DNA of 64,000 nt, taken from IMG/VR virus record IMGVR_UViG_3300014204_000132. The stretch is one strand, 5' to 3'. The position numbers were made by a program, and so were the translations under genes. Of this stretch, positions 5,691 through 55,830 are shown in pieces; position 1 is the first letter of the stretch, and every line of letters begins with the position of its first letter. This DNA comes from a virus (taxonomy: Duplodnaviria; Heunggongvirae; Uroviricota; Caudoviricetes). Under the pieces are notes generated by a model, which was not told where the DNA came from, made no database searches, and worked only from the letters and a program-made list of their open reading frames with translations.

Positions 5691-6300
5691 AAAGCAACAT
5701 ATAAACGGTTCATGTTTAAAACAACCTCATCTATAATTCGGTCTAAATTTTCAATTGGTGGTTTATTTTCAAATATTAAATCAAATCCATCATAATTATC
5801 GAGTTCAATTTCTGATGCATGATTCATATCTCTCTGGTCATTTTCTCTTAGAGATGTTGGGTCACCATTCAACCTGATTAATAAACCACCCATTTTTTTG
5901 ATATAATCAGCCTCGTTTTTAAATCTAACATCCGAAACAACCCAATTATCAACTTCAGGGTGATACTTTGAAAACAATGATAAAACCCACGCATCATGAT
6001 GAAGATTATTTCTAATAGCTTCAGTGCCTATTTTTTGCTGCATTTCACCAACTGTCATCCCCCACTCAGGTAAAAATTTTAGTTTACCTTCTCTGGACAT
6101 AGCTTCTTCCATAGATATACCAGTTAAATAAGATACGATATATTTTAAATCGTATGCAAATTTTTTGTTTTCAAATTTAATCCCTTGTTTTTCGTAATAC
6201 TGAATAATTCTTTCAGAAAATGCATCTTTTCCATTTAACCCGACCCTATCTTACCAGAAATCCCGATTAGATAGGGTCGTTTTTTAATTGTTTTATTCAT
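5687..6300 (-). CDS. deoxynucleoside monophosphate kinase (T4 gp1-like), apparently frameshifted
   Basis: The C-terminal part (5687..6112 plus in-frame upstream extension to 6253) reads ...GLNGKDAFSERIIQYYEKQG...WVVSDVRFKNEADYIKKMGGLLIR (dNMP kinase-like). The N-terminal piece 6235..6300 reads MNKTIKKRPYLIGISGKIGSG* in another frame. A 1-nt change in the ggtt/aaa run at 6234-6241 would fuse them into the GxxxxGKD P-loop. Confidence 0.55.
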
Positions 6301-6360
6301 TTTATTTTATTTTATTTTTTAATATTTAATAAATATTATAAATGATATAAATTTTAATTA

Positions 6361-7086
6361 TTAATAATATTTCCATATATAACCTTTTGCTGTTTTTGTT
6401 TTATTATTGCAACAATTTCTTATAGTTTCAGAATCACAATTATATTTTTCAGATGCAACTCTACAATTTTGATATTTATCAATAAAATTACCATCAATAT
6501 CATATTGTGCTACACATTTACTTCTATTACTAATATCAATATTTAAACCTTTATTCCAAGGTATATTACCTTTTTTAAATGTTCCTGAATTAGGTTTATT
6601 ACTTTTATATTTTGAAGTACATTTTTGACTACAAAATTTTCTATTCGTGTTGGGTGATGCAGTAAATTTTTTTCCACACATTTCACAGATAAATTCATTA
6701 GCTTTATCATAATTCCAAGGTATATTACCTTTTTTAAATGATGTTTGATTACCATATGTTAAACCATCACCACCACAAGTATGATTAACTAAATCAAAAC
6801 CCCAACTATTCATTAATTGAATCCAAAATTTTTCCCAGAATTTCCATTCTAAAACAGATACTTCATCAATTATTTCAAATAATGGTTTTATTTTTTCCCT
6901 TTTTAATAATTCTATCCAATTTGTTTTATGTGTTTTTTCATTGTGTTTACGATTCATATGATTTTTTAATCTCATATTTGGATTATTTGTCTTACCCACA
7001 TACCTAACTAAATTATTACGAGGGTCACTGAGAGTGTAAATATATACTGTTTTCACACTAATTTTACCACTCACACCTATTAACAT
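6361..7086 (-). CDS. GIY-YIG homing endonuclease (Seg-like)
   Basis: VYIYTLSDPRNNLVRYVGKTNN...RLKNH GIY-YIG motif. The C-terminus carries a repeated GNIPWN module and Cys-rich zinc-finger-like DNA-binding modules. Confidence 0.75.
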   Translation of the reverse strand: MLIGVSGKISVKTVYIYTLSDPRNNLVRYVGKTNNPNMRLKNHMNRKHNEKTHKTNWIELLKREKIKPLFEIIDEVSVLEWKFWEKFWIQLMNSWGFDLVNHTCGGDGLTYGNQTSFKKGNIPWNYDKANEFICEMCGKKFTASPNTNRKFCSQKCTSKYKSNKPNSGTFKKGNIPWNKGLNIDISNRSKCVAQYDIDGNFIDKYQNCRVASEKYNCDSETIRNCCNNKTKTAKGYIWKYY

Positions 7087-16624: not shown

Positions 16625-19600
16625 TTAATTTAATTTTTTAAGTTCTCTTTTTAACTCCGATAAATCATCCAGCCAAAGTTCATGTAAAGTTTTTTTAGAA
16701 TATTCTTCCAATTCTTTAATTTTTTCAGCTAATTGATTTTTTAAATTATCATATTTTTCTTTGGAAAGAGAATATATCACCATATTTAATAGATAATCAT
16801 ACGAATCATCTATTTTATCCAAATTATTTTTTATACATTCCTGTTCAATAAATTCTTTATTTTTATTGGATATAACGATTTTATTTTTAATTATTAAATC
16901 TATAAAATTACACCTGTTATTAAGTATCTGTATATCTCTTTTGAATTTATCAATTACAGAATTTTTTCTTTTATCATAATAATCTAATCTGATTTCCATG
17001 AAATCATCTATTACTTCATAAATGTCCCCGTATAATTTGATTTTATCATTCTTATCAAACAAATTCATGTTCGAATTATTGATATACGATGTTAAATCAA
17101 ATATTTTCAAAATATAATTAGGGGTAAATAATTTTAAAGATTCTTTAGGTAATTGTATTATAATATTGACGTTCTCATCTGTACTATGCTTAGTATAATT
17201 CAATATAACTTTAGTATCAATCAATTCATTTAATTTGAAATAAAATTTATCATACCACAATCCAATCGGTAATTCAGTTATTTTTAACCTATCATTATGT
17301 AACTCAAATGTACCCTCTGTAACATATCGGTCTTTATCCAGATATATTTTACCTTTAAATTTATTATAATATGGATTAATATTTTTTCTTGGATTAGCTG
17401 AACCTTTTATTTTTTTTTCAATATAATCAACCAAATCAACAATATTATATTTTGGAACTAATGTTGACCAACCAGTTCCAATACCTTCTGCCCCATTCAC
17501 TAATACCATTGGAATAATAGGTATATAAAATTTAGGTTCAATCACATATCCATCATCATCTAAATATTCTAAAACTGCATTATCTTCTTTCCTGAAAATA
17601 TAATCTGTTATAGGAACTTTATTTGTAAAAATATATCTCGAAGCAGATGAATCTTTACCACCCATTGAACGAGTTCCAAATTCTCCAGATGGTATAAGCA
17701 AATTTATATTATTTGAACCAACAAAATTCTGAGCCATATTGATAATTGTTTGTTCAAGTGACTGTGGGCCATGATGATAAGAGGTGGCTTCAATAATAGC
17801 ACCTGATAATAAACCCACTTTAACTTCATCTTTATAATTCTTTTTATTTAAAGTATAAAGTATTTTTCTATGAGTTGGTTTAAATCCATCAATAACACTT
17901 GGTATTGACCTAATATTATCGGCCATACTAAATTCAATAAGTTCATCATTTATAAATGAATCATAATATGTTTTTTTACCAAATTTATCTACTTCATTGT
18001 TTGGTTTATATTTCAACAACCAATTTTTTCTATCTTCAGCCCTATTTTTACGAAAAGCCATATCAATTAAATCCTTGGTTATTTCTGGATTTCGATAATT
18101 AAAACGTATTAGATGTTTATCAATTTCTTTAAAGAATTCTTTTGATTCATGTGGTTCTATTGTACCAAGTCCTTTATAATATTTTACAAACCAATTATCA
18201 ACATTTACAGTTTCTTTCCATCTCCTGTATTCATTTAATTTATAAAAATATTTAACAACAGCACCTTTTTTTACTTTAACAATTGGTGTAACAAATTCGT
18301 ATATAAAGTCAGCTTCAAGTAAATATGGGAAAAATGTTTCAAACAAATTAATCAACAACCCTTTAATATGTGAACCATCATGGTCTGCATCGGTAAAAAG
18401 AACAACTTTACCATATCTTAATTCAGAAGTATTTGTATATTTTTTACCAATTTCTAAACCTAAAGCTGATATAATACCCTTAATTTCTTCATCTTCTAAT
18501 ATTTTTTTAACTGCTATATCTCTAACATTTAAAGGTTTTCCTTTCAATGGAAATGCACCATAATAATCTCTACCAGTCACTGAAAATCCTCTTAAACAAG
18601 AAGAAAGTGCTGAATCCCCTTCAGTTAAAAATAATAAACACATTCTACTATCTTTAGTACCAGCTCTATTAGCATCATCTAATTTTCTCACTTTAACAGT
18701 TCTACCATTCTTATTTTTAACAGCTTTCTGTAAAGCTAATTGTTCTTTGAGTTCAATATAATCAATAATTTCCTGAGTAATATCTGATTTTAATATTTTC
18801 TTAATAAAATTATCTGATATTTCAATATCTTTAAATGATGATATTTTGGTATTTAATATTTCTTTAACCTGACTGTCAAATTCTGGATTAAACACTTTAG
18901 TATTTAAAAATAAAAATATTTTTGATTTAATATCATTCGGATTAATCTCGAATTTATTTCCTCGTGAAAGGGATGATTTTAGTTTACTTGTTATTTGATT
19001 TATAGCATGATTTACATGAGTTCCACCTTGTAATGTAGCCAGACCATTAACCAATGAAATTTGTTCAAATGAATCAGAAAAAGTTTTCATAACACCTATT
19101 TCCCATAAATCGTTTATTTTTTCATAAATAATTTCATGGTTATCGAGCATGAATAATTTCATATAATCTTTAAATGATTTTATACTAATCAGATTATTGT
19201 TGAAATATACTTTCACATTTGGATTATATGCAGCTATATCAATAGTTCTCTTAATCATAACTGATTTAATATCATCAATTAATTCTATAAATCCGAACCT
19301 TTCGTAATCTGGGAGAAAAGATATTTTAGTAAATTTTTTTGAAGATACTCTAATGTGTGGTTTTGGTAATTTACCTTTTTTATCCGATGATAAATTATCA
19401 GTAAATACTTGTTTGTAATAATTTTTACCATCAGCAGTTTCAACTATAAACTCTTTAGAAAATATATTACAAGCTTTTGCACCTATACCATTTCGACCAC
19501 CCCCTATTCGTTGTTCTGTATCATCATAATTTTCACCCGTAAGTAAATGTCCAAAAATTAATTCTGGTACATATACTTTTTCATCTTTATGAATAACAAC

Positions 19601-19918
19601 AGGTATACCATCACCATCATTCCAAACAGATATTTTATTATTATCAATTTCAATTTTAATAGATTTAACTCTACCTGTCTTTACACTGTGGTCAGAAGCA
19701 TTAGTAATAATTTCATCAAATATTTTTATTAATCCAGCATTATAATTAATTTCTTTCTTAACTATTTTTAAATTTTCAAAATTATCTATATTATCAACAG
19801 TGAATACCATTCTTCTTTCAGAATTAATTGAACCAATATAAGTATCACTACGCTGTAAAACGTGTTCTCTCTGGGAGAGTTTCTTATATTGTTCTTCAAT
19901 CTTCTTTTTCTTAACCAT
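16625..19918 (-). CDS. type IIA DNA topoisomerase, fused ATPase plus breakage-reunion subunits
   Basis: GHKL N-box IFDEIITNASDH, GGRNGIGAKACN, Toprim LTEGDSA...DADHDGSHIKGL, PLKGKPLNV, DGFKPTHRKILY and the active-site tyrosine motif SRYIFT. 1097 aa. Confidence 0.9.
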   Translation of the reverse strand: MVKKKKIEEQYKKLSQREHVLQRSDTYIGSINSERRMVFTVDNIDNFENLKIVKKEINYNAGLIKIFDEIITNASDHSVKTGRVKSIKIEIDNNKISVWNDGDGIPVVIHKDEKVYVPELIFGHLLTGENYDDTEQRIGGGRNGIGAKACNIFSKEFIVETADGKNYYKQVFTDNLSSDKKGKLPKPHIRVSSKKFTKISFLPDYERFGFIELIDDIKSVMIKRTIDIAAYNPNVKVYFNNNLISIKSFKDYMKLFMLDNHEIIYEKINDLWEIGVMKTFSDSFEQISLVNGLATLQGGTHVNHAINQITSKLKSSLSRGNKFEINPNDIKSKIFLFLNTKVFNPEFDSQVKEILNTKISSFKDIEISDNFIKKILKSDITQEIIDYIELKEQLALQKAVKNKNGRTVKVRKLDDANRAGTKDSRMCLLFLTEGDSALSSCLRGFSVTGRDYYGAFPLKGKPLNVRDIAVKKILEDEEIKGIISALGLEIGKKYTNTSELRYGKVVLFTDADHDGSHIKGLLINLFETFFPYLLEADFIYEFVTPIVKVKKGAVVKYFYKLNEYRRWKETVNVDNWFVKYYKGLGTIEPHESKEFFKEIDKHLIRFNYRNPEITKDLIDMAFRKNRAEDRKNWLLKYKPNNEVDKFGKKTYYDSFINDELIEFSMADNIRSIPSVIDGFKPTHRKILYTLNKKNYKDEVKVGLLSGAIIEATSYHHGPQSLEQTIINMAQNFVGSNNINLLIPSGEFGTRSMGGKDSSASRYIFTNKVPITDYIFRKEDNAVLEYLDDDGYVIEPKFYIPIIPMVLVNGAEGIGTGWSTLVPKYNIVDLVDYIEKKIKGSANPRKNINPYYNKFKGKIYLDKDRYVTEGTFELHNDRLKITELPIGLWYDKFYFKLNELIDTKVILNYTKHSTDENVNIIIQLPKESLKLFTPNYILKIFDLTSYINNSNMNLFDKNDKIKLYGDIYEVIDDFMEIRLDYYDKRKNSVIDKFKRDIQILNNRCNFIDLIIKNKIVISNKNKEFIEQECIKNNLDKIDDSYDYLLNMVIYSLSKEKYDNLKNQLAEKIKELEEYSKKTLHELWLDDLSELKRELKKLN

Positions 19919-33813: not shown

Positions 33814-34326
33814 TTATATTTTATTTTCTATAACACAATATATATCATTATTTGTTTTATTATTGATTATTATTAATTCTTCTATTTCAAACCCATTTGT
33901 TTTCCCTATACCACCACTATTAAATCCGATTGATATAACATGACCATTAGTTTTAATAATTCTTGTTATTTCTTTTTTCAGAAAAGTCCAATACTGTGTT
34001 CGTGTATGGTGTAATTTACGTTTTATGTTTAAATCGTCAAAATATTTCATCATTTGTGTTGCACTATACGGTGGGTCATATATTATTATATCAACACTTT
34101 TATCTTTCAATTCTTTCAAAAAATCTAATGCATCTAAGTGATAATCAACATTATATACACTGTTTATGTCATTGTTTATACTTGCCAATTTATTATCTCC
34201 TGAAAATGGATTCACTGATATTATATTTTCTGTTTTTTTTAGAAAAAATGAAATTTTTTCTAAAATTTCAGGATGATTGGTATAATCATCATATCTATTA
34301 TCGTCTTTATATCTTGTTATTTTCAT
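33814..34326 (-). CDS. small DPPY-motif methyltransferase (phage Dam-like / RsmD-like)
   Basis: ISVNPFSGDNK...DALDFL...VDIIIYDPPYS. 170 aa. Confidence 0.5.
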   Translation of the reverse strand: MKITRYKDDNRYDDYTNHPEILEKISFFLKKTENIISVNPFSGDNKLASINNDINSVYNVDYHLDALDFLKELKDKSVDIIIYDPPYSATQMMKYFDDLNIKRKLHHTRTQYWTFLKKEITRIIKTNGHVISIGFNSGGIGKTNGFEIEELIIINNKTNNDIYCVIENKI

Positions 34327-34833
34327 TTAAAATAATTTATTTTCAACTACACAAACTGTATCATAATGAATTCCACCATGCGGTACTATTAATATTTCTT
34401 CTATTTCTAAATTGTTAAATATATTAACACCCGATGAATTCCAACTAAAAGTTATAATTTTTCCATTTATTTTTAATTTTTTTTGATACAAATCAAACAA
34501 TTTTAACCAATATGCCTCATTATTATTAAGATGATTAGAATCGTTGAATATTTTATAACATTGATTTAATTGATAAAAGTTATAGGGTGGGTCGTTTAAA
34601 ATGAAATCTATGGAATTGTTTTCAAATAAATTTAAAAAATCTAACGCATCTAAATTATAATCCGTGTTATATGTTGTATCTAAATCATTTGTTATTTTAG
34701 CAATTTTACTATTATTAGCAAATGGGTCAATACTTAAAAAATCGGAGCTGTTATATTTTTCGATTAAATTTTTAATAGGTTTTATAGAAAAAGTATTTTT
34801 ATTTGGCATAGACCATAATCTATTGATAATCAT
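34327..34833 (-). CDS. small DPPY-motif methyltransferase, paralogue of 33814..34326
   Basis: SIDPFANNSK...DALDFL...IDFILNDPPYN. 168 aa. Abuts its paralogue. Confidence 0.5.
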   Translation of the reverse strand: MIINRLWSMPNKNTFSIKPIKNLIEKYNSSDFLSIDPFANNSKIAKITNDLDTTYNTDYNLDALDFLNLFENNSIDFILNDPPYNFYQLNQCYKIFNDSNHLNNNEAYWLKLFDLYQKKLKINGKIITFSWNSSGVNIFNNLEIEEILIVPHGGIHYDTVCVVENKLF

Positions 34834-35013: not shown

Positions 35014-37446
35014 ATGAAAAAAATCGATTATGAAAAAGTGTTTTATGATTTATTAAACATCGTTAAATCAAATAATGTTGAAGATTATTTGAGTGTTAAC
35101 GGTCTTTTAAATAGGGACTTGTGGAAAAATATTAATGGTGTCGTTAGCACCGATGGAATAATTCAGAATAGTAATGCTGATTGTGTACCTGCGTTAACAG
35201 AAAAATTAACAAATTCAGTTGATGCCCTTATTGAAAGGGAAATAGAATTACATAATAATTCTGTTTATCCAAAAAAATATAAAGATGTAATAAATAATAA
35301 TTGCAAACATCTGAAAGTAGAAAACTCTTTTAATAAACAACCCCATTTATTTAACAGCGACCCAAATATTTATATAGTTTCGAGATTGGGTACAACTATT
35401 CCAACTTTGAATATTATCGATAGGGGTATAGGGCAAGATATAACAACCTTTGAATCGACTTTTTTAACAATGACCAATTCTAATAAAATTACAAAATTTT
35501 GTTTGAATGGAGCATATAATACTGGGTCATTTAGTATCGTCAGACATTTAAAAGAACCTAATTATCAATTAATTATAAGTAAAAAACCAGCATCTTTAAT
35601 AAAAGATAATAAAAATAAAGATGTTTGGACATATTCACTGTTACGTATTTTTGAACCAAAAAAAGGAACAAAATTAAAAGAATTTAAATTTCTTTGTCCG
35701 AATGGTGAATTACCACACTTTGAATCCAAAGCAGGTATAAGGGTAATACCTATAAATGATGATAAAAAGAATAGAGGTTATCTTGAACATGGAACACTTA
35801 TTCAATTATATGAATGTGACACTAAGGGGTTCAATTCGTTGATAACATCCGAATTGAAATATCGTTTAGGTTGGTATTATCCAAATATACCCTTTCCAGT
35901 GTCTATGATAGAAGAACGGGAGTATGAATCTAAAGGTTCTGAAAAAGCAAAATTGAATGGTATTGTTTTCGAGTTCGAACATAACATTAAAGAGGGTAAA
36001 GAAGCCATATTATATCATGTTGATAAAATTGCAACAGTAGGTAAATATAAAATACCTTATACTATATATATTGAGAACCCGACAACCACAGCGAGGGGTG
36101 AAGGTGAAAAAAGAACGAAAAAAAACACAGACCGAAAAAAACGTGGTGACATGTGTTATTTTTTCACTGTTAATGGACAAACCCAAGCTACAAAATCCAA
36201 CTGGAGAATAAAACATATATATAGTTATATTCTGAAAAACATTGTTATGTTTATTGATTATTCCAGTATTGAACCACACGAACTCGGTAAACATATTAAA
36301 ACCGACCGTTCTGGATTGAATACTAATTCAGTTATTAATGAAGAAATTTTTAAAATCATCGAAGATGAGTTACGTGATAACCCTCATATAAATGCGATTG
36401 AAGAAGAAATTAGAAGATTTAGATTAAATTCTTCTAATGATTATAACCAAGATGAAGCTAAAAAAGTAGCTTTAAAATGTGTTCACAAACTCTTTAATTT
36501 AAAAGAAACACCTATCGCCACCGATTCTAACGGTGTTCTTACACCATATTATACTGGTAAAGAGAATGGTTTACCTAAAGATAAAAACGGTAAATATTTT
36601 AATGGTAAACATAAAGGTGTACCACGTACAACTAATTATCCCACTATTGATGATTTCATATTGAAGTATTCGAAATATGATTTTGATAATCCTAAAGTTG
36701 GATATAAAGATGAAAATTCAAGAAATCTTCTATATTCAGATAAATCAGTAGAAATAGAAGTTTATGTGGACGGAGCTGCCATAGAAACGTCTACTAATTC
36801 AGAATTCCCGGGTAATTCTATTATCTATATCAATTATTCGAGTGATAATGGATTTAGAGTTAATAAAAATTCTGAAGTGACTATCAAGTTCTATATTGAT
36901 AATGGAGGTAATATTATAGAGAAAGAAGTTACTTATAATATTATAATGTTCGAAAAAAGAGAAGAAACTGATAAACCACAAGTCACGAATAATAGATTTG
37001 CAAAGGTGAATGATAAGATTAATGTCATATTTCAGAAATATGAAGAATTAGCAGACAGTGTACTTACTAATTCCTTTAAATTGCAAAAAGATATCGTGGC
37101 TATTCCAGTGTTGGGTGGTGAAAATAATATTGACATTTATTTTAATATGAACAACCCAAACTTTGTTCGTGTTTTAGATAGTGGTGCTATTGTTAGTGAT
37201 GATGAGCAAGGACGGATAAAAAGTATAATTGATGTTGCTTTACGTGTTGAAACATTAAAATTGTATGATGTTTACCATAGATTAAGCGATGATACCGAAT
37301 CTAAAACCGATACTTCTGATTATAATAGTGGTATTATTTCACTGGCTAGTATCATGAAAGAAACTACATTAGAAAAACTAATGTTCAACCATTTTTACAC
37401 CTTACAGGATGGGTTGGTTAAATTATACAATGATGAAATAAAATAG
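35014..37446 (+). CDS. large protein with N-terminal GHKL (Bergerat-fold) ATPase-like motifs
   Basis: EKLTNSVDAL (N-box E..N..DA), NIIDRGIGQD (G1 DxGxG) and a Gly-rich NGAYNTGSFS (G2-like). 810 aa. Confidence 0.45.
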   Translation: MKKIDYEKVFYDLLNIVKSNNVEDYLSVNGLLNRDLWKNINGVVSTDGIIQNSNADCVPALTEKLTNSVDALIEREIELHNNSVYPKKYKDVINNNCKHLKVENSFNKQPHLFNSDPNIYIVSRLGTTIPTLNIIDRGIGQDITTFESTFLTMTNSNKITKFCLNGAYNTGSFSIVRHLKEPNYQLIISKKPASLIKDNKNKDVWTYSLLRIFEPKKGTKLKEFKFLCPNGELPHFESKAGIRVIPINDDKKNRGYLEHGTLIQLYECDTKGFNSLITSELKYRLGWYYPNIPFPVSMIEEREYESKGSEKAKLNGIVFEFEHNIKEGKEAILYHVDKIATVGKYKIPYTIYIENPTTTARGEGEKRTKKNTDRKKRGDMCYFFTVNGQTQATKSNWRIKHIYSYILKNIVMFIDYSSIEPHELGKHIKTDRSGLNTNSVINEEIFKIIEDELRDNPHINAIEEEIRRFRLNSSNDYNQDEAKKVALKCVHKLFNLKETPIATDSNGVLTPYYTGKENGLPKDKNGKYFNGKHKGVPRTTNYPTIDDFILKYSKYDFDNPKVGYKDENSRNLLYSDKSVEIEVYVDGAAIETSTNSEFPGNSIIYINYSSDNGFRVNKNSEVTIKFYIDNGGNIIEKEVTYNIIMFEKREETDKPQVTNNRFAKVNDKINVIFQKYEELADSVLTNSFKLQKDIVAIPVLGGENNIDIYFNMNNPNFVRVLDSGAIVSDDEQGRIKSIIDVALRVETLKLYDVYHRLSDDTESKTDTSDYNSGIISLASIMKETTLEKLMFNHFYTLQDGLVKLYNDEIK

Positions 37447-37473
37447 TAATGTCGCTCATTATATGATTATAAA

Positions 37474-37506
37474 TAGCACCACTAAAAAATGGTGCTATTT
37501 TATTTT
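37474..37506. terminator. bidirectional hairpin terminator
   Basis: TAGCACCActaaaaaaTGGTGCTA followed by TTTTATTTT. The stop codon of convergent gene 37495..37725 lies in the 3' arm. Confidence 0.55.
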
Positions 37507-37725
37507 GTCCTTCTTTAAATCATTTATTACTTTATAGATTTTGTTTATTTCTAAACATCTTTCTGGAAAGGCTAAATCTTTTATTTCATTATGTATTACA
37601 CGTATATAATTACTTATATCTTTATCTATTAAATTATTTAAATTAATAGGTTTTCTACCCCTTTTATAAGTGTGTTTATCGAATATCGCTTTAATATCTT
37701 TTGATATTTTATCGATATCTAACAC
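37495..37725 (-). CDS. hypothetical small protein
   Basis: 76-aa ORF. Confidence 0.35.
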   Translation of the reverse strand: MLDIDKISKDIKAIFDKHTYKRGRKPINLNNLIDKDISNYIRVIHNEIKDLAFPERCLEINKIYKVINDLKKDKIK

Positions 37726-37738
37726 TGTTATATTTTTT

Positions 37739-38017
37739 TTAAATATTATATATTAGTAAATATATAGTTCCAAACATAATTATAACACCGAAAATTACTA
37801 TTAAATCATTTTTTATTTTCTGCCAAAATGTTCTTTTTGCATATTCTACACACTGACCTTTATATTTAAAATGTATCCGTATCCAATAGGTTGATTCTAT
37901 GGCTTCCTTAAAATTTAATTTTAGACAAGAAATGAAAAATATTCCTATCATCCAGAATAAAAAATATAACCAATCTAAAATTTTATAAACCATTTTATGA
38001 AAATTTTTCTCCAGCAA
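37739..38017 (-). CDS. small membrane protein
   Basis: Two TM segments. 92 aa. Confidence 0.35.
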   Translation of the reverse strand: MLEKNFHKMVYKILDWLYFLFWMIGIFFISCLKLNFKEAIESTYWIRIHFKYKGQCVEYAKRTFWQKIKNDLIVIFGVIIMFGTIYLLIYNI

Positions 38018-38369
38018 ATTTATCTATTTCAAAATAATTAGCAGTAATTTCTTCTCCTTTTTTAATATTATTATTTGCTATCATATCACCCTCTATGTTC
38101 GGATTAGAATTTGGGTTGTTACTATGGTTTGTAAATCTATCATTAACAGCAGATAATAAAAATATATCAGTCTGTGCATCTAAAAAAGCATATTTCTTTA
38201 TAAATTCCTTTTCAACATCATTCAACCTTTCAACTGTTTCTTCATCCAAGGTTATATCTATATATGAATTATATTTCCATATTACCGTACCTTCTAAAAT
38301 ATCTTCAACAGCAAACACTCCAAGGTTATCAATCTCACTTTTATCTATATAAGTTTTAACCAGTAACAT
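37995..38369 (-). CDS. minimal SET-domain protein lysine methyltransferase
   Basis: NLGVFAVEDILEGTVIW...NDRFTNHSNNPNSNPN...GEEITANY correspond to the GxG, RFINHSCxPN and EELTxxY SET signatures. 124 aa, the same size class as the minimal chlorovirus vSET. Confidence 0.6.
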   Translation of the reverse strand: MLLVKTYIDKSEIDNLGVFAVEDILEGTVIWKYNSYIDITLDEETVERLNDVEKEFIKKYAFLDAQTDIFLLSAVNDRFTNHSNNPNSNPNIEGDMIANNNIKKGEEITANYFEIDKFAGEKFS

Positions 38370-38609
38370 AATACTTTTTATTTTTATATATTATAGCATT
38401 GTGGGTATCAGTAAGTATTTTAAAAATAAAAATATTATTTAAATGTAACCTTCCCCACATTACTCTCGTAAAATCTACGATTCAAATATAATTTGAATAT
38501 TTCATTGAATATTTTTTGATTATTTTGAATATTTTTTTCGTAGGATTTTTTTTATAAAAATAAACCTATTATTTTTGACACATAATTACAAACTAAAAAT
38601 TATACGGAT

Positions 38610-40103
38610 ATGAAAACAACAAAAATTTATTTCTTAGCACTCGCAGTTCTGACTGCTTTCGTTCTGACCTTAACATCATGTGAGAAAGACGAAGAATTTC
38701 TTAATCCTGAACCTAAAATTGCTGATACTAATATTGTTATCAGCCAAAACGGTGATACACTTGTTAATGGTGATAGTAATAATGTCACTGATACCACTGT
38801 TGGTTATCATCGTGAATATGTTAATCAATTCGATTTAGCCAATGTATCTAAGTTGAAAGTTTTTTCGCAACCTGATGGTTTCGTTGATTCAATTTGGGTA
38901 TATGATGTTTATGGTGATACTACTTTTGTTGTACCTATGAGCAACAAAATCGAAATGCACGATGCAAATTTAAATTATGCCTTTTCGACTATTGAAAACA
39001 TGGAGCTTGTTAGCAACTTTCTTAAAATGACTGCCGATTTTGTAGTTAGTACATATTATCCTTCTTCTAATAATACAACTGGTATTCAGGAATACACAAT
39101 GAAGTCTGCTACTATTGCCGAAATGTCAACAGTAATGGTTAATAAAGAAGATGGTACTATTGAAACTATTGAAGAAACTCCTGTTACTGATGGTGCATAT
39201 GTTGTATTACCTAATAACGATTGGACTTGGGTTAATAACGCTGGTCTTACTGTTACTTTTAGTGACGAATCATCTTCTAAAACTGGTTCGGTTATTAATA
39301 TTAATAATGCTGAATTTGCTACAATGTTAGCTGATAATTATACCGACTTCTTTAATACAACTGGTTATGAAATATCAAGTCCTTCCAATTTCGCTTGTAC
39401 TAAAACTATTAAGTTATCAAACGGTGATGTGTATGGTTATATAACATTCATACCTAATAGTAATTTGGGTGCAACATCTTGGACTTTTGTAACAGTCGTT
39501 AAAATTATAAGTAGCGGTTCTTTCTCACTAAGTTATGTAAAAACATCTGCTAATTATTCTGATTTCAATAATTCTTTTAATCTTTTGATTAATGATAACA
39601 CGGCTTTAAGTGAATATGGTTATACACCTGATATGCGTTCTTTGATAAAAGGTAATAAAGTTATTTCTCAGATTAACACTGGTACACTTGATAGTTATGT
39701 TTGGATGAAAGGTTATATGTTTGCTCCATCATTCACTATGTATGATTTATCAACAAAAAACTTGAACGCTTTTACAAACCCATCAAACACTATCAGTGAT
39801 GGTTATAACAACCATAAACTTACTTCTAAGATGATTTTATTCGGTGACTACATTTATTATATAACTGAAGAAGATGGTTCTAATTATGTGACTAAAATTC
39901 AGATTAGTACTATCAATACAACAAGTCAGCTTAATGTTGTATCGGCTGGTTCAAAAATCATAACCACAGCTATCGAATCGATTTCGACTACTGAAAATGG
40001 TTACTTCATCCTGACAAACGGTACTACTAACTACTTCATATATGAAGATGGTCATATGACAACTGGAACTACTACACCTGCTGGTGATGTTATCAACTTC
40101 TAA
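38610..40103 (+). CDS. lipoprotein (signal peptide with lipobox LTSC)
   Basis: N-terminus MKTTKIYFLALAVLTAFVLTLTSCEKDEE is a bacterial type-II signal peptide with a lipobox Cys followed by acidic residues. 497 aa, Thr/Ser/Asn-rich. Confidence 0.6.
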   Translation: MKTTKIYFLALAVLTAFVLTLTSCEKDEEFLNPEPKIADTNIVISQNGDTLVNGDSNNVTDTTVGYHREYVNQFDLANVSKLKVFSQPDGFVDSIWVYDVYGDTTFVVPMSNKIEMHDANLNYAFSTIENMELVSNFLKMTADFVVSTYYPSSNNTTGIQEYTMKSATIAEMSTVMVNKEDGTIETIEETPVTDGAYVVLPNNDWTWVNNAGLTVTFSDESSSKTGSVININNAEFATMLADNYTDFFNTTGYEISSPSNFACTKTIKLSNGDVYGYITFIPNSNLGATSWTFVTVVKIISSGSFSLSYVKTSANYSDFNNSFNLLINDNTALSEYGYTPDMRSLIKGNKVISQINTGTLDSYVWMKGYMFAPSFTMYDLSTKNLNAFTNPSNTISDGYNNHKLTSKMILFGDYIYYITEEDGSNYVTKIQISTINTTSQLNVVSAGSKIITTAIESISTTENGYFILTNGTTNYFIYEDGHMTTGTTTPAGDVINF

Positions 40104-40301: not shown

Positions 40302-41363
40302 TTAATGTTTTTCAATTAAATCAACGATTTCAGAATAAAAATTGTTTTTAATTGCTGAATTATAAGCACCACTATAATTATTAATAAAATCACTTCTCGA
40401 TTTACATAACAATGCAATTTCTTTACATTTTTCTTTTGTCCAATAACCGTTCGGGTTTCTTAAAATATTCATGTGTGAACATAAATTATCTAACCATTTA
40501 TTTTTTCGACACAACTTATAAGCAGTGTAAAAATTTTTACTAAATTCTTTTTTCGATTTACACAATAACACACTTTTTTCACACTGTTCATATGTCCAAT
40601 AACCATATGGTCTACTTTTGGTATTCATGTGTAAACATATTTCATTCATCCATTTATTAAAACGAGCAGAATTGTAAGCACTACTATATTTAATGTGAAA
40701 AGCTTTTCTTGATGAACAGGTTGAAGCAACCTTTTGACATCTTTCTTTTGTCCAATATTTATTAGAGCCTCCTAATGAACCAGCTTTTGCTTTATTTAAA
40801 ATATTCCAACCAGCCTGTTTATATTTATTAATAAAATATTCTTCTAATATTTGTGCTTCTTCTTTAACCACGTAATCTGATAATTGTTTACATATGGGAT
40901 TAATAATCATTTTTTTATATTTTAGTACTGGACTATTCTTATTATAGTTATGATAATTTGTTCTTTCTTCTAAATTCCCAGTTAATCCTATATATGCCGA
41001 ATTATCTTCAAATTCCCACACATATATACATCTAAAATATTTATTACCAATATTTTTCATATGGGAACATATCGTATTTAGCCACCCCTTTCTATATGCT
41101 GCATGATACGCACTGTTATATTTTATATAAAAATCACTTCTTGAATAACATAATAATGACACTTCTTGACATTTATCATAATTCCAGAAATTCTTTGGTT
41201 TATGTATCTTAAACATATGAATACATATAATATCTAACCAATTCTTATTTATTGCTTTATAATATGCACCAACATGTTTACTACATAATTCTGTTCTTGA
41301 ATCACATAATAATGCAACTTCTTTACACCTCTCAAAAGTCCAATATCCATTTTTATTTTTCAT
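40302..41363 (-). CDS. GIY-YIG nuclease with six repeated 45-aa modules
   Basis: Central FRCIYVWEFEDNSAYIGLTGNLEER (GIY-YIG). It is flanked by repeats of GYWT.E.C.E.A..C.SR..F...AY..A.KN.WL..IC.HM. Confidence 0.6.
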   Translation of the reverse strand: MKNKNGYWTFERCKEVALLCDSRTELCSKHVGAYYKAINKNWLDIICIHMFKIHKPKNFWNYDKCQEVSLLCYSRSDFYIKYNSAYHAAYRKGWLNTICSHMKNIGNKYFRCIYVWEFEDNSAYIGLTGNLEERTNYHNYNKNSPVLKYKKMIINPICKQLSDYVVKEEAQILEEYFINKYKQAGWNILNKAKAGSLGGSNKYWTKERCQKVASTCSSRKAFHIKYSSAYNSARFNKWMNEICLHMNTKSRPYGYWTYEQCEKSVLLCKSKKEFSKNFYTAYKLCRKNKWLDNLCSHMNILRNPNGYWTKEKCKEIALLCKSRSDFINNYSGAYNSAIKNNFYSEIVDLIEKH

Positions 41364-55671: not shown

Positions 55672-55760
55672 TATATATTAAATAAAAAAATCATTTTTTC
55701 TATTGATGATATATATTAAATAAAAAAATCATTTTTTCTATTGATGATATATATTAAATG
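55672..55760. repeat. 38-bp tandem repeat, 2.3 copies, in divergent promoter region
   Basis: tatatattaaataaaaaaatcattttttctattgatga is present exactly twice (55672-55709 and 55710-55747), plus a degenerate third start. Confidence 0.8.
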
Positions 55761-55830
55761 AAAAAAATGAAAAAAATTCCAAAGAAACCCACACCAACAA
55801 AATATATAAGAATAAATTTATTTATTTATT

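Follow-up and report, generated by a model that had tools for sequence, protein, structure and literature searches.

A putative stand-alone SET-domain methyltransferase encoded in a megaphage genome

Introduction

Small methyltransferases built around a single SET domain are known from viruses and from prokaryotes. The chlorovirus enzyme vSET methylates histone H3 at lysine 27 (H3K27) and is packaged in the virion; to our knowledge, histone H3 is absent from bacteria. Among the prokaryotic enzymes, the archaeal Go1-SET of Methanosarcina mazei has been characterised and has MC1-alpha as substrate, cpnSET methylates Hc1, automethylation is reported for the bacterial SET protein NUE, and histones are the targets of certain bacterial SETs that are secreted as effectors (PMC3980110). 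In the present work a SET-domain gene was analysed that lies in the IMG/VR virus record IMGVR_UViG_3300014204_000132 (Duplodnaviria; Heunggongvirae; Uroviricota; Caudoviricetes). The whole stretch of 64,000 nucleotides is referred to as the window, and the encoded protein as the window SET. A first-pass annotation, made from the sequence alone, had proposed a minimal SET-domain lysine methyltransferase in a phage-like genome.

ADP-ribosylation, phosphorylation and acetylation are known means by which phages reprogramme their hosts. In the searchable literature, a major review comparing jumbo phages among it, we found no paper on or characterising a phage SET enzyme and no description of a phage protein-lysine methyltransferase. 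Database labels exist: JGI names the identical protein 'SET domain-containing protein', and UniProt/BFVD lists a 'SET domain containing protein [uncultured Caudovirales phage]'. Phage SET proteins are already in the databases, and as a sequence the window SET is no surprise. We consider it likely that the gene encodes a functional stand-alone class V SET methyltransferase dependent on S-adenosylmethionine (SAM), most probably a protein-lysine N-methyltransferase, and that it is an accessory gene of a megaphage of ~680 kb with a probable Bacteroidota host.

The SET gene and its conserved motifs

The SET gene is located on the minus strand at 37995-38369. It runs from an ATG start to a TAA stop and encodes 124 amino acids (aa), exactly as the first-pass annotation had drawn it. 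For the family alignment 28 homologues were used, with E values from 8e-74 to 6e-9 and lengths of 120-145 aa throughout. The N-terminus MLLVKTY is common to nearly all of these relatives and the start codon is therefore credible. Stop-codon recoding as in Lak phages was considered and rejected, since 59 of the 77 long open reading frames (ORFs) end in TAA. The SET gene also stops at TAA, and thus its boundaries are unaffected. Comparison of the window copy with the copy on a related contig (L089, introduced below) gave a ratio of nonsynonymous to synonymous substitution rates (dN/dS) of 0.088/0.779, or ~0.11. The gene is under purifying selection.

A search with Pfam matched the protein to the SET profile PF00856 with 46.4 bits (gathering cut-off 22.4; E 5.6e-12), and the match extends over positions 2-104 of the 105 in the profile. 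This is far past chance and confirms the proposed SET identity. Two of the motifs that had been read from the sequence were recovered by alignment: RFTNHSNNPN (residues 78-87; 38109-38138, minus strand), which forms the NHSxxPN loop of the SAM and active site, and GEEITANY (residues 105-112; 38034-38057, minus strand), whose last residue is the presumed catalytic Tyr112. The third, NLGVFA, is also present and makes up the motif I region N15-L16-G17-V18-F19-A20 on the SAM-binding strand (38310-38327, minus strand). Its earlier label GxG did not hold. The window SET reads N15-L16-G17, with asparagine in place of the first glycine and the second glycine retained, and the motif is thus a degenerate one. 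Across the 28 homologues F19, N81, H82, S83, N87, I102, E107 and Y112 are invariant, and G17 is almost invariant. The protein is acidic, with an isoelectric point (pI) of 4.35, and contains no cysteine, so that zinc-binding modules before or after the SET domain (pre- and post-SET) are lacking.

Predicted fold and active site

An AlphaFold2 model was built from the 28 homologues. It had a mean predicted local distance difference test score (pLDDT) of 91.6 and a predicted template modelling score of 0.81. The pLDDT was 95-98 at residues 1-30 and 75-84 in the C-terminal 12 residues. In the pseudoknot typical of SET domains, the C-terminal segment passes through the loop behind the NHSxxPN motif. 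The predicted structure shows the beta-fold of SET domains. When the model was compared with the PDB by Foldseek, 310 matches at E<=1e-3 were obtained. The best 50 were all SET domains, led by MLL3, MLL4 and MLL1, and the crystal structure of vSET (3kma_A) ranked ninth with a template modelling (TM) score of 0.75 normalised to vSET. The alignments span 117-123 of the 124 residues. Structure prediction against SET and vSET structures, which had been suggested as a check, thus returned a confident SET fold, with SET domains only among the fold matches listed.

The presumed catalytic residues were compared in profile alignments. NHS81-83 and Y112 pair with NHSCAPN of MLL4 and with the tyrosine of ELTYDY in MLL1 and MLL4. 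An hhalign comparison of the family with vSET (PDB 1n3j_A) gave a probability of 97.5% and placed the whole window SET on vSET residues 1-107. Here Y60, NHS81-83 and Y112 correspond to Y50, NHS69-71 and Y105 of vSET, so that the alignment of the catalytic NH and Y residues, on which the proposal depended, was borne out. Sequence and model show an intact SET active site; the gene is real and its enzyme probably active.

Genome context and relatives

The G+C content of the window is ~26% overall and ranges from 22 to 31% in 2-kb windows. Among its genes are those for a topoisomerase II of T4 type in fused form, for a UvsW-type helicase and for a further phage helicase. One protein, of 1023 aa, shares 41-42% identity with proteins of the 634-735 kb phages LR756501, LR756503, LR745206 and LR756502, with weaker matches in Lak (Prevotella) phages, in Sphingomonas phage PAU and in Tenacibaculum and Chryseobacterium jumbo phages. 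The description of the genome as phage-like was therefore correct. The identical SET protein is found on a contig of 678,337 bp and was also recovered from further ENA and SRA samples. Together, the phage genes, the protein matches to huge phages and the size of this contig indicate a megaphage setting, probably with a Bacteroidota host.

SET is also present in two further lineages of this phage group. One is a 640-kb IMG/VR contig (L001/L089), whose SET protein (P0002) is 81% identical to the window SET. The second, represented by the 25-kb fragment L135 (from JGI 3300063008), has a chimeric SET gene (6001-6375). Residues 33-124 of this copy are 76% identical to the window SET, and residues 1-38 match the N-terminus of a 257-aa gene upstream of SET in L089 (29 of 38 identical). 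The first ~36 SET residues are replaced and the cofactor-binding strand is gone, with the reading frame kept. The chimera arose by deletion or fusion. A tblastn search of GenBank phages with the window SET matched only LR756504.1 (636 kb), which has a SET of its own, 135 aa long, with different gene neighbours; the other huge phages gave no match. With the LR756504.1 SET as query, one weak match in a Synechococcus phage was added. Megablast with 16 kb around SET found no match among GenBank phages.

The wider family was collected by a HMMER scan over 1.84 billion representative proteins (clusters at 50% identity). At E<=1e-30 the scan gave 337 clusters, a number that rose to 2,897 at E<=1e-10; the usual length is 120-145 aa. 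About 10 of the 150 best family representatives are longer (276-334 aa) and contain two SET matches, or three in two cases; examples of such tandem proteins are P0029, P0031, P0032, P0036, P0050 and P0053. Loci were searched with a 7-sequence subset of the 28-sequence alignment. In IMG/VR, 45 contigs carry SET relatives. The closest are 43-51% identical and lie on contigs of 16-260 kb, all of them viral. In a neighbour-joining tree without support values, the window SET is part of a cluster of 8-9 viral sequences, with cellular sequences joining only outside it, and it appears to belong to a group that is so far seen on viral contigs only. Genes next to SET on the viral contigs include the large terminase, ribonucleotide reductase subunits, tRNA-His guanylyltransferase and a homing endonuclease, and the neighbourhoods are not common between contigs. 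On one 176-kb viral contig (L104, 4981-8302), SET lies between the small and large ribonucleotide reductase subunits.

For the cellular relatives, identity and taxa were taken from the best 80 of 190. These are 29-42% identical, with 36-42% in the best genomes as compared with 43-51% in the viral group, and occupy ordinary chromosomal settings in Mesorhizobium, Inquilinus, Hyphomicrobiales, Acidobacteriota, bacteria of the candidate phyla radiation (CPR) and DPANN archaea. No Bacteroidota genome was among these best 80 of a pattern-limited scan, and a recent capture of SET from the host is therefore not indicated. The SETs of the phage group have a pI of 4.3-5.5. The alphaproteobacterial chromosomal SETs have a pI of 9-10 and a basic C-terminal tail.

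The SET operon and neighbouring genes

The SET gene is the first of a compact minus-strand unit, followed by genes for 84 and 76 aa and then by a hairpin. The 84-aa gene (37739-37993, minus strand) starts 1 nt past the SET stop. Its product has two hydrophobic helices as read from the sequence, and two transmembrane (2-TM) segments were found by hydropathy in the L089 homologue. SET and this 2-TM gene are probably co-transcribed. The third ORF (37495-37725, minus strand) encodes a lysine-rich basic protein with 14 lysines and a pI of 9.5. Family library searches gave no match for the 84-aa or the 76-aa protein. PHROGs v4, PADLOC and NCBIfam yielded no meaningful match for SET or for either of its two small partners, so that these phage-specific and defence libraries do not cover them.

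At each of the three related megaphage loci, L001/L089 and L135 among them, the 2-TM gene (69-73% identity) lies next to SET, and no homologue of it was found near any other SET in ~130 loci. L135 has the 76-aa gene (53% identity) in the same third place. In the 640-kb relative, the part of the sequence that was fetched (L001, L089; <=8 kb on each side of SET) does not contain it. A trio of similar sizes in LR756504.1 (SET, 83 aa and 76 aa) was compared with that of the window and rejected as a counterpart: there is no sequence similarity and the agreement in size is coincidental.

The hairpin at 37471-37500 (strand not assigned) was detected in a terminator scan that returned 2 sites against 0.2 expected. 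It has an 11-bp stem flanked by A- and T-runs and is positioned between the convergent SET operon and an 810-aa gene. It is likely a bidirectional terminator. On the upstream side, a pattern match revealed an extended -10-like element, TGcTATAAT, at 38390-38398 (minus strand), 21 nt ahead of the SET start codon. The TGnTATAAT pattern is only ~2-fold enriched in the window. L089, in which SET comes immediately after another gene, does not conserve the site. A conserved SET promoter was rejected for this reason and because most copies of the motif are intragenic. In the window, the element is a possible but weak promoter candidate.

Divergent from the SET operon, a 497-aa protein is encoded at 38610-40103 (plus strand). 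Its N-terminus resembles a lipoprotein signal (...LTSC), and upstream of the gene a sequence similar to the Bacteroidota -7 element TAnnTTTG was noticed by eye. The protein is 58% identical in L135 and has no family match; a relaxed Pfam search gave only a sub-threshold match to Pro_sub2 (17.1 bits; cut-off 25 bits). On the other side of the operon, the slot up to a conserved Band_7 gene varies. In the window (35014-37446, plus strand) it is filled by the 810-aa ORF, for which Pfam gave no family match, relaxed thresholds included. In L135 (6888-9906) it holds an AIPR protein of the abortive-infection type (PF10592) and an N6/N4 DNA methyltransferase. The slot resembles an island of accessory or conflict genes. 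Next to each other at 33814-34326 and 34327-34833 (minus strand) lie ORFs of 170 and 168 aa, both with sub-threshold similarity to class I methyltransferase families (PF10237, PF03602; 16-18 bits); they may be methyltransferase paralogues in tandem.

A 353-aa GIY-YIG nuclease protein with internally repeated segments (phrog_20046) is encoded at 40302-41363 (minus strand). L089 and L135 have related copies flanking their SET region, and the gene looks like a mobile gene of the homing-endonuclease type. The topoisomerase II is a single 1097-aa ORF (16625-19918, minus strand), in which a T4 gp39-like large-subunit part and a gp52-like part are fused, as seen from matches to phrog_543 and phrog_551 and from GyrB, Toprim and TopoIV-A domains. 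Two intergenic features were recorded elsewhere in the window: the Rfam DUF805b RNA motif at 13571-13603 (minus strand; 40.3 bits, gathering threshold 35.6) and a near-perfect 38-nt tandem repeat at 55672-55768 (2.5 copies, 98% matches).

Discussion

From what is established for SET enzymes, SAM would bind at the N-terminal strand (N15-G17) and at the N81-H82-S83 loop. The side chain of the substrate, presumably a lysine, would enter a narrow channel formed by Y60, F79 and Y112, and the methyl group would be moved by an SN2 reaction. During infection, such methylation would serve as a host-takeover or protective modification. With low confidence, we suggest a basic, lysine-rich protein as substrate, because the enzyme itself is acidic and because small, basic proteins that bind DNA are methylated by the minimal SETs of other viruses and of prokaryotes. 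Candidates, again with low confidence, are a nucleoid-associated or ribosomal protein of the host and the co-operonic 76-aa protein. More broadly, it is possible, and proposed here only tentatively, that tailed phages including the largest megaphages keep an acidic minimal SET lineage that methylates basic host nucleoid-associated or ribosomal proteins, as an unrecognised post-translational modification in host takeover. If true, bacterial viruses would have their own equivalent of the silencing of host chromatin by chlorovirus vSET.

Two caveats apply. The first glycine of the GxG motif is replaced by Asn15 only in the window SET and in its 81% relative, and G-x-G is kept in 25 of 25 other homologues that retain the N-terminal region. 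Moreover, the 76-aa candidate substrate has no counterpart in the fetched stretch of the 640-kb relative. The lost glycine would also fit an accessory gene that is catalytically weakened or in decay, with a product that is a pseudoenzyme or a binding module and has no methyltransferase role in infection. The same can be said of the chimeric L135 copy without its SAM-binding strand, and of the related huge phages in GenBank, most of which lack SET by tblastn, with LR756504.1 as the only one that has it. Such decay is nevertheless quite improbable given the dN/dS of 0.11 and the invariance of all other catalytic residues. In addition, Asn15 is conserved between two diverged copies, the modelled N-terminal residues 1-30 have a high pLDDT, and the cofactor contacts of the N-terminal strand of SET domains are mainly made by the main chain. 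An active lysine methyltransferase could also be directed at a phage protein, with the lysine-rich 76-aa product, the enzyme itself and a virion or internal protein as candidates, and methylation might then, for example, shield lysines from host proteases or conjugation systems. The linkage of SET to the 2-TM gene in all three relatives and to the 76-aa gene in two is in line with this explanation, as are the acidic enzyme beside a basic protein with 14 lysines and the precedent of NUE automethylation (PMC3980110). A travelling partner would, however, be expected to be linked more widely. Neither small gene is found beside SET in any other phage, and even in the 640-kb relative the 76-aa gene is missing from the stretch fetched around SET. 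A phage substrate therefore seems rather unlikely to us.

The preferred assignment, a protein-lysine methyltransferase, was further weighed against other targets of the SET fold. Methylation of a target other than lysine, either a small molecule as by BurB or a protein histidine as by SETD3, appears improbable. BurB of Burkholderia thailandensis (PDB 9l4t) is a SET-domain methionine S-methyltransferase of 172 aa with free methionine as substrate. The combination that marks a BurB-type enzyme, specific similarity to BurB together with linkage to sulfonium dimethylsulfoniopropionate (DMSP)/bur genes, was not found for the window SET. The gene might instead be vSET-like, of eukaryotic or giant-virus origin, and act on a eukaryotic histone, for example as an effector that the bacterial host delivers to an animal or protist cell. 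The size and fold resemble those of vSET, the catalytic residues align, giant-virus SETs lead the viral structure search, and secreted bacterial SET effectors act on histones (PMC3980110). Against this, the nearest relatives are from phages and free-living prokaryotes (such as Mesorhizobium, Inquilinus, CPR, DPANN), and vSET ranks below many cellular SETs. Furthermore, the acidic protein has no signal peptide and no basic tail resembling a nuclear localisation signal, and no secretion gene is nearby. This origin is thus very hard to credit.

The window SET and its ~45 viral relatives are small, soluble-looking and easily expressed, and would permit a direct test of lysine methylation in the conflict between phage and bacterium. 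They could also reveal the role of the large stand-alone prokaryotic SET family, which is itself uncharacterised.

Among described systems, vSET of PBCV-1 (A612L, PDB 1n3j/3kma) is of the same size class, as had been pointed out in the first-pass annotation: it has 119 aa and the window SET 124, and neither has the Cys-rich, zinc-binding pre- and post-SET modules. Sequence identity is 25% only, and the family profile ranks vSET (E 1e-7) under MLL, NSD and EZH. An orthologue of vSET was therefore rejected, the nearest relatives being phage and prokaryotic SETs at 36-51% identity. The SET of an uncultured Caudovirales phage (A0A6J5L8Y2, 128 aa) matches in structure with E 1.7e-6 and a TM score of 0.66. 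The annotated Caudovirales SETs and those of the 45 IMG/VR contigs are, like the window SET, small stand-alone proteins among phage genes. None of these other phage SETs is characterised, and the downstream 2-TM gene is found only in the three close megaphage relatives. The stand-alone minimal SETs of prokaryotes such as Mesorhizobium and Inquilinus likewise consist of a single SET domain without accessory domains, can be aligned end to end from MLLVKTY at 36-42% identity and share the invariant NHS...N and E...Y residues. In contrast to the alphaproteobacterial members, the window SET is phage-borne, has a pI of 4.35 instead of 9-10 and carries N-L-G in place of G-x-G. By its sequence, the window SET is a member of this stand-alone prokaryotic and phage family of minimal SET proteins of 120-145 aa.
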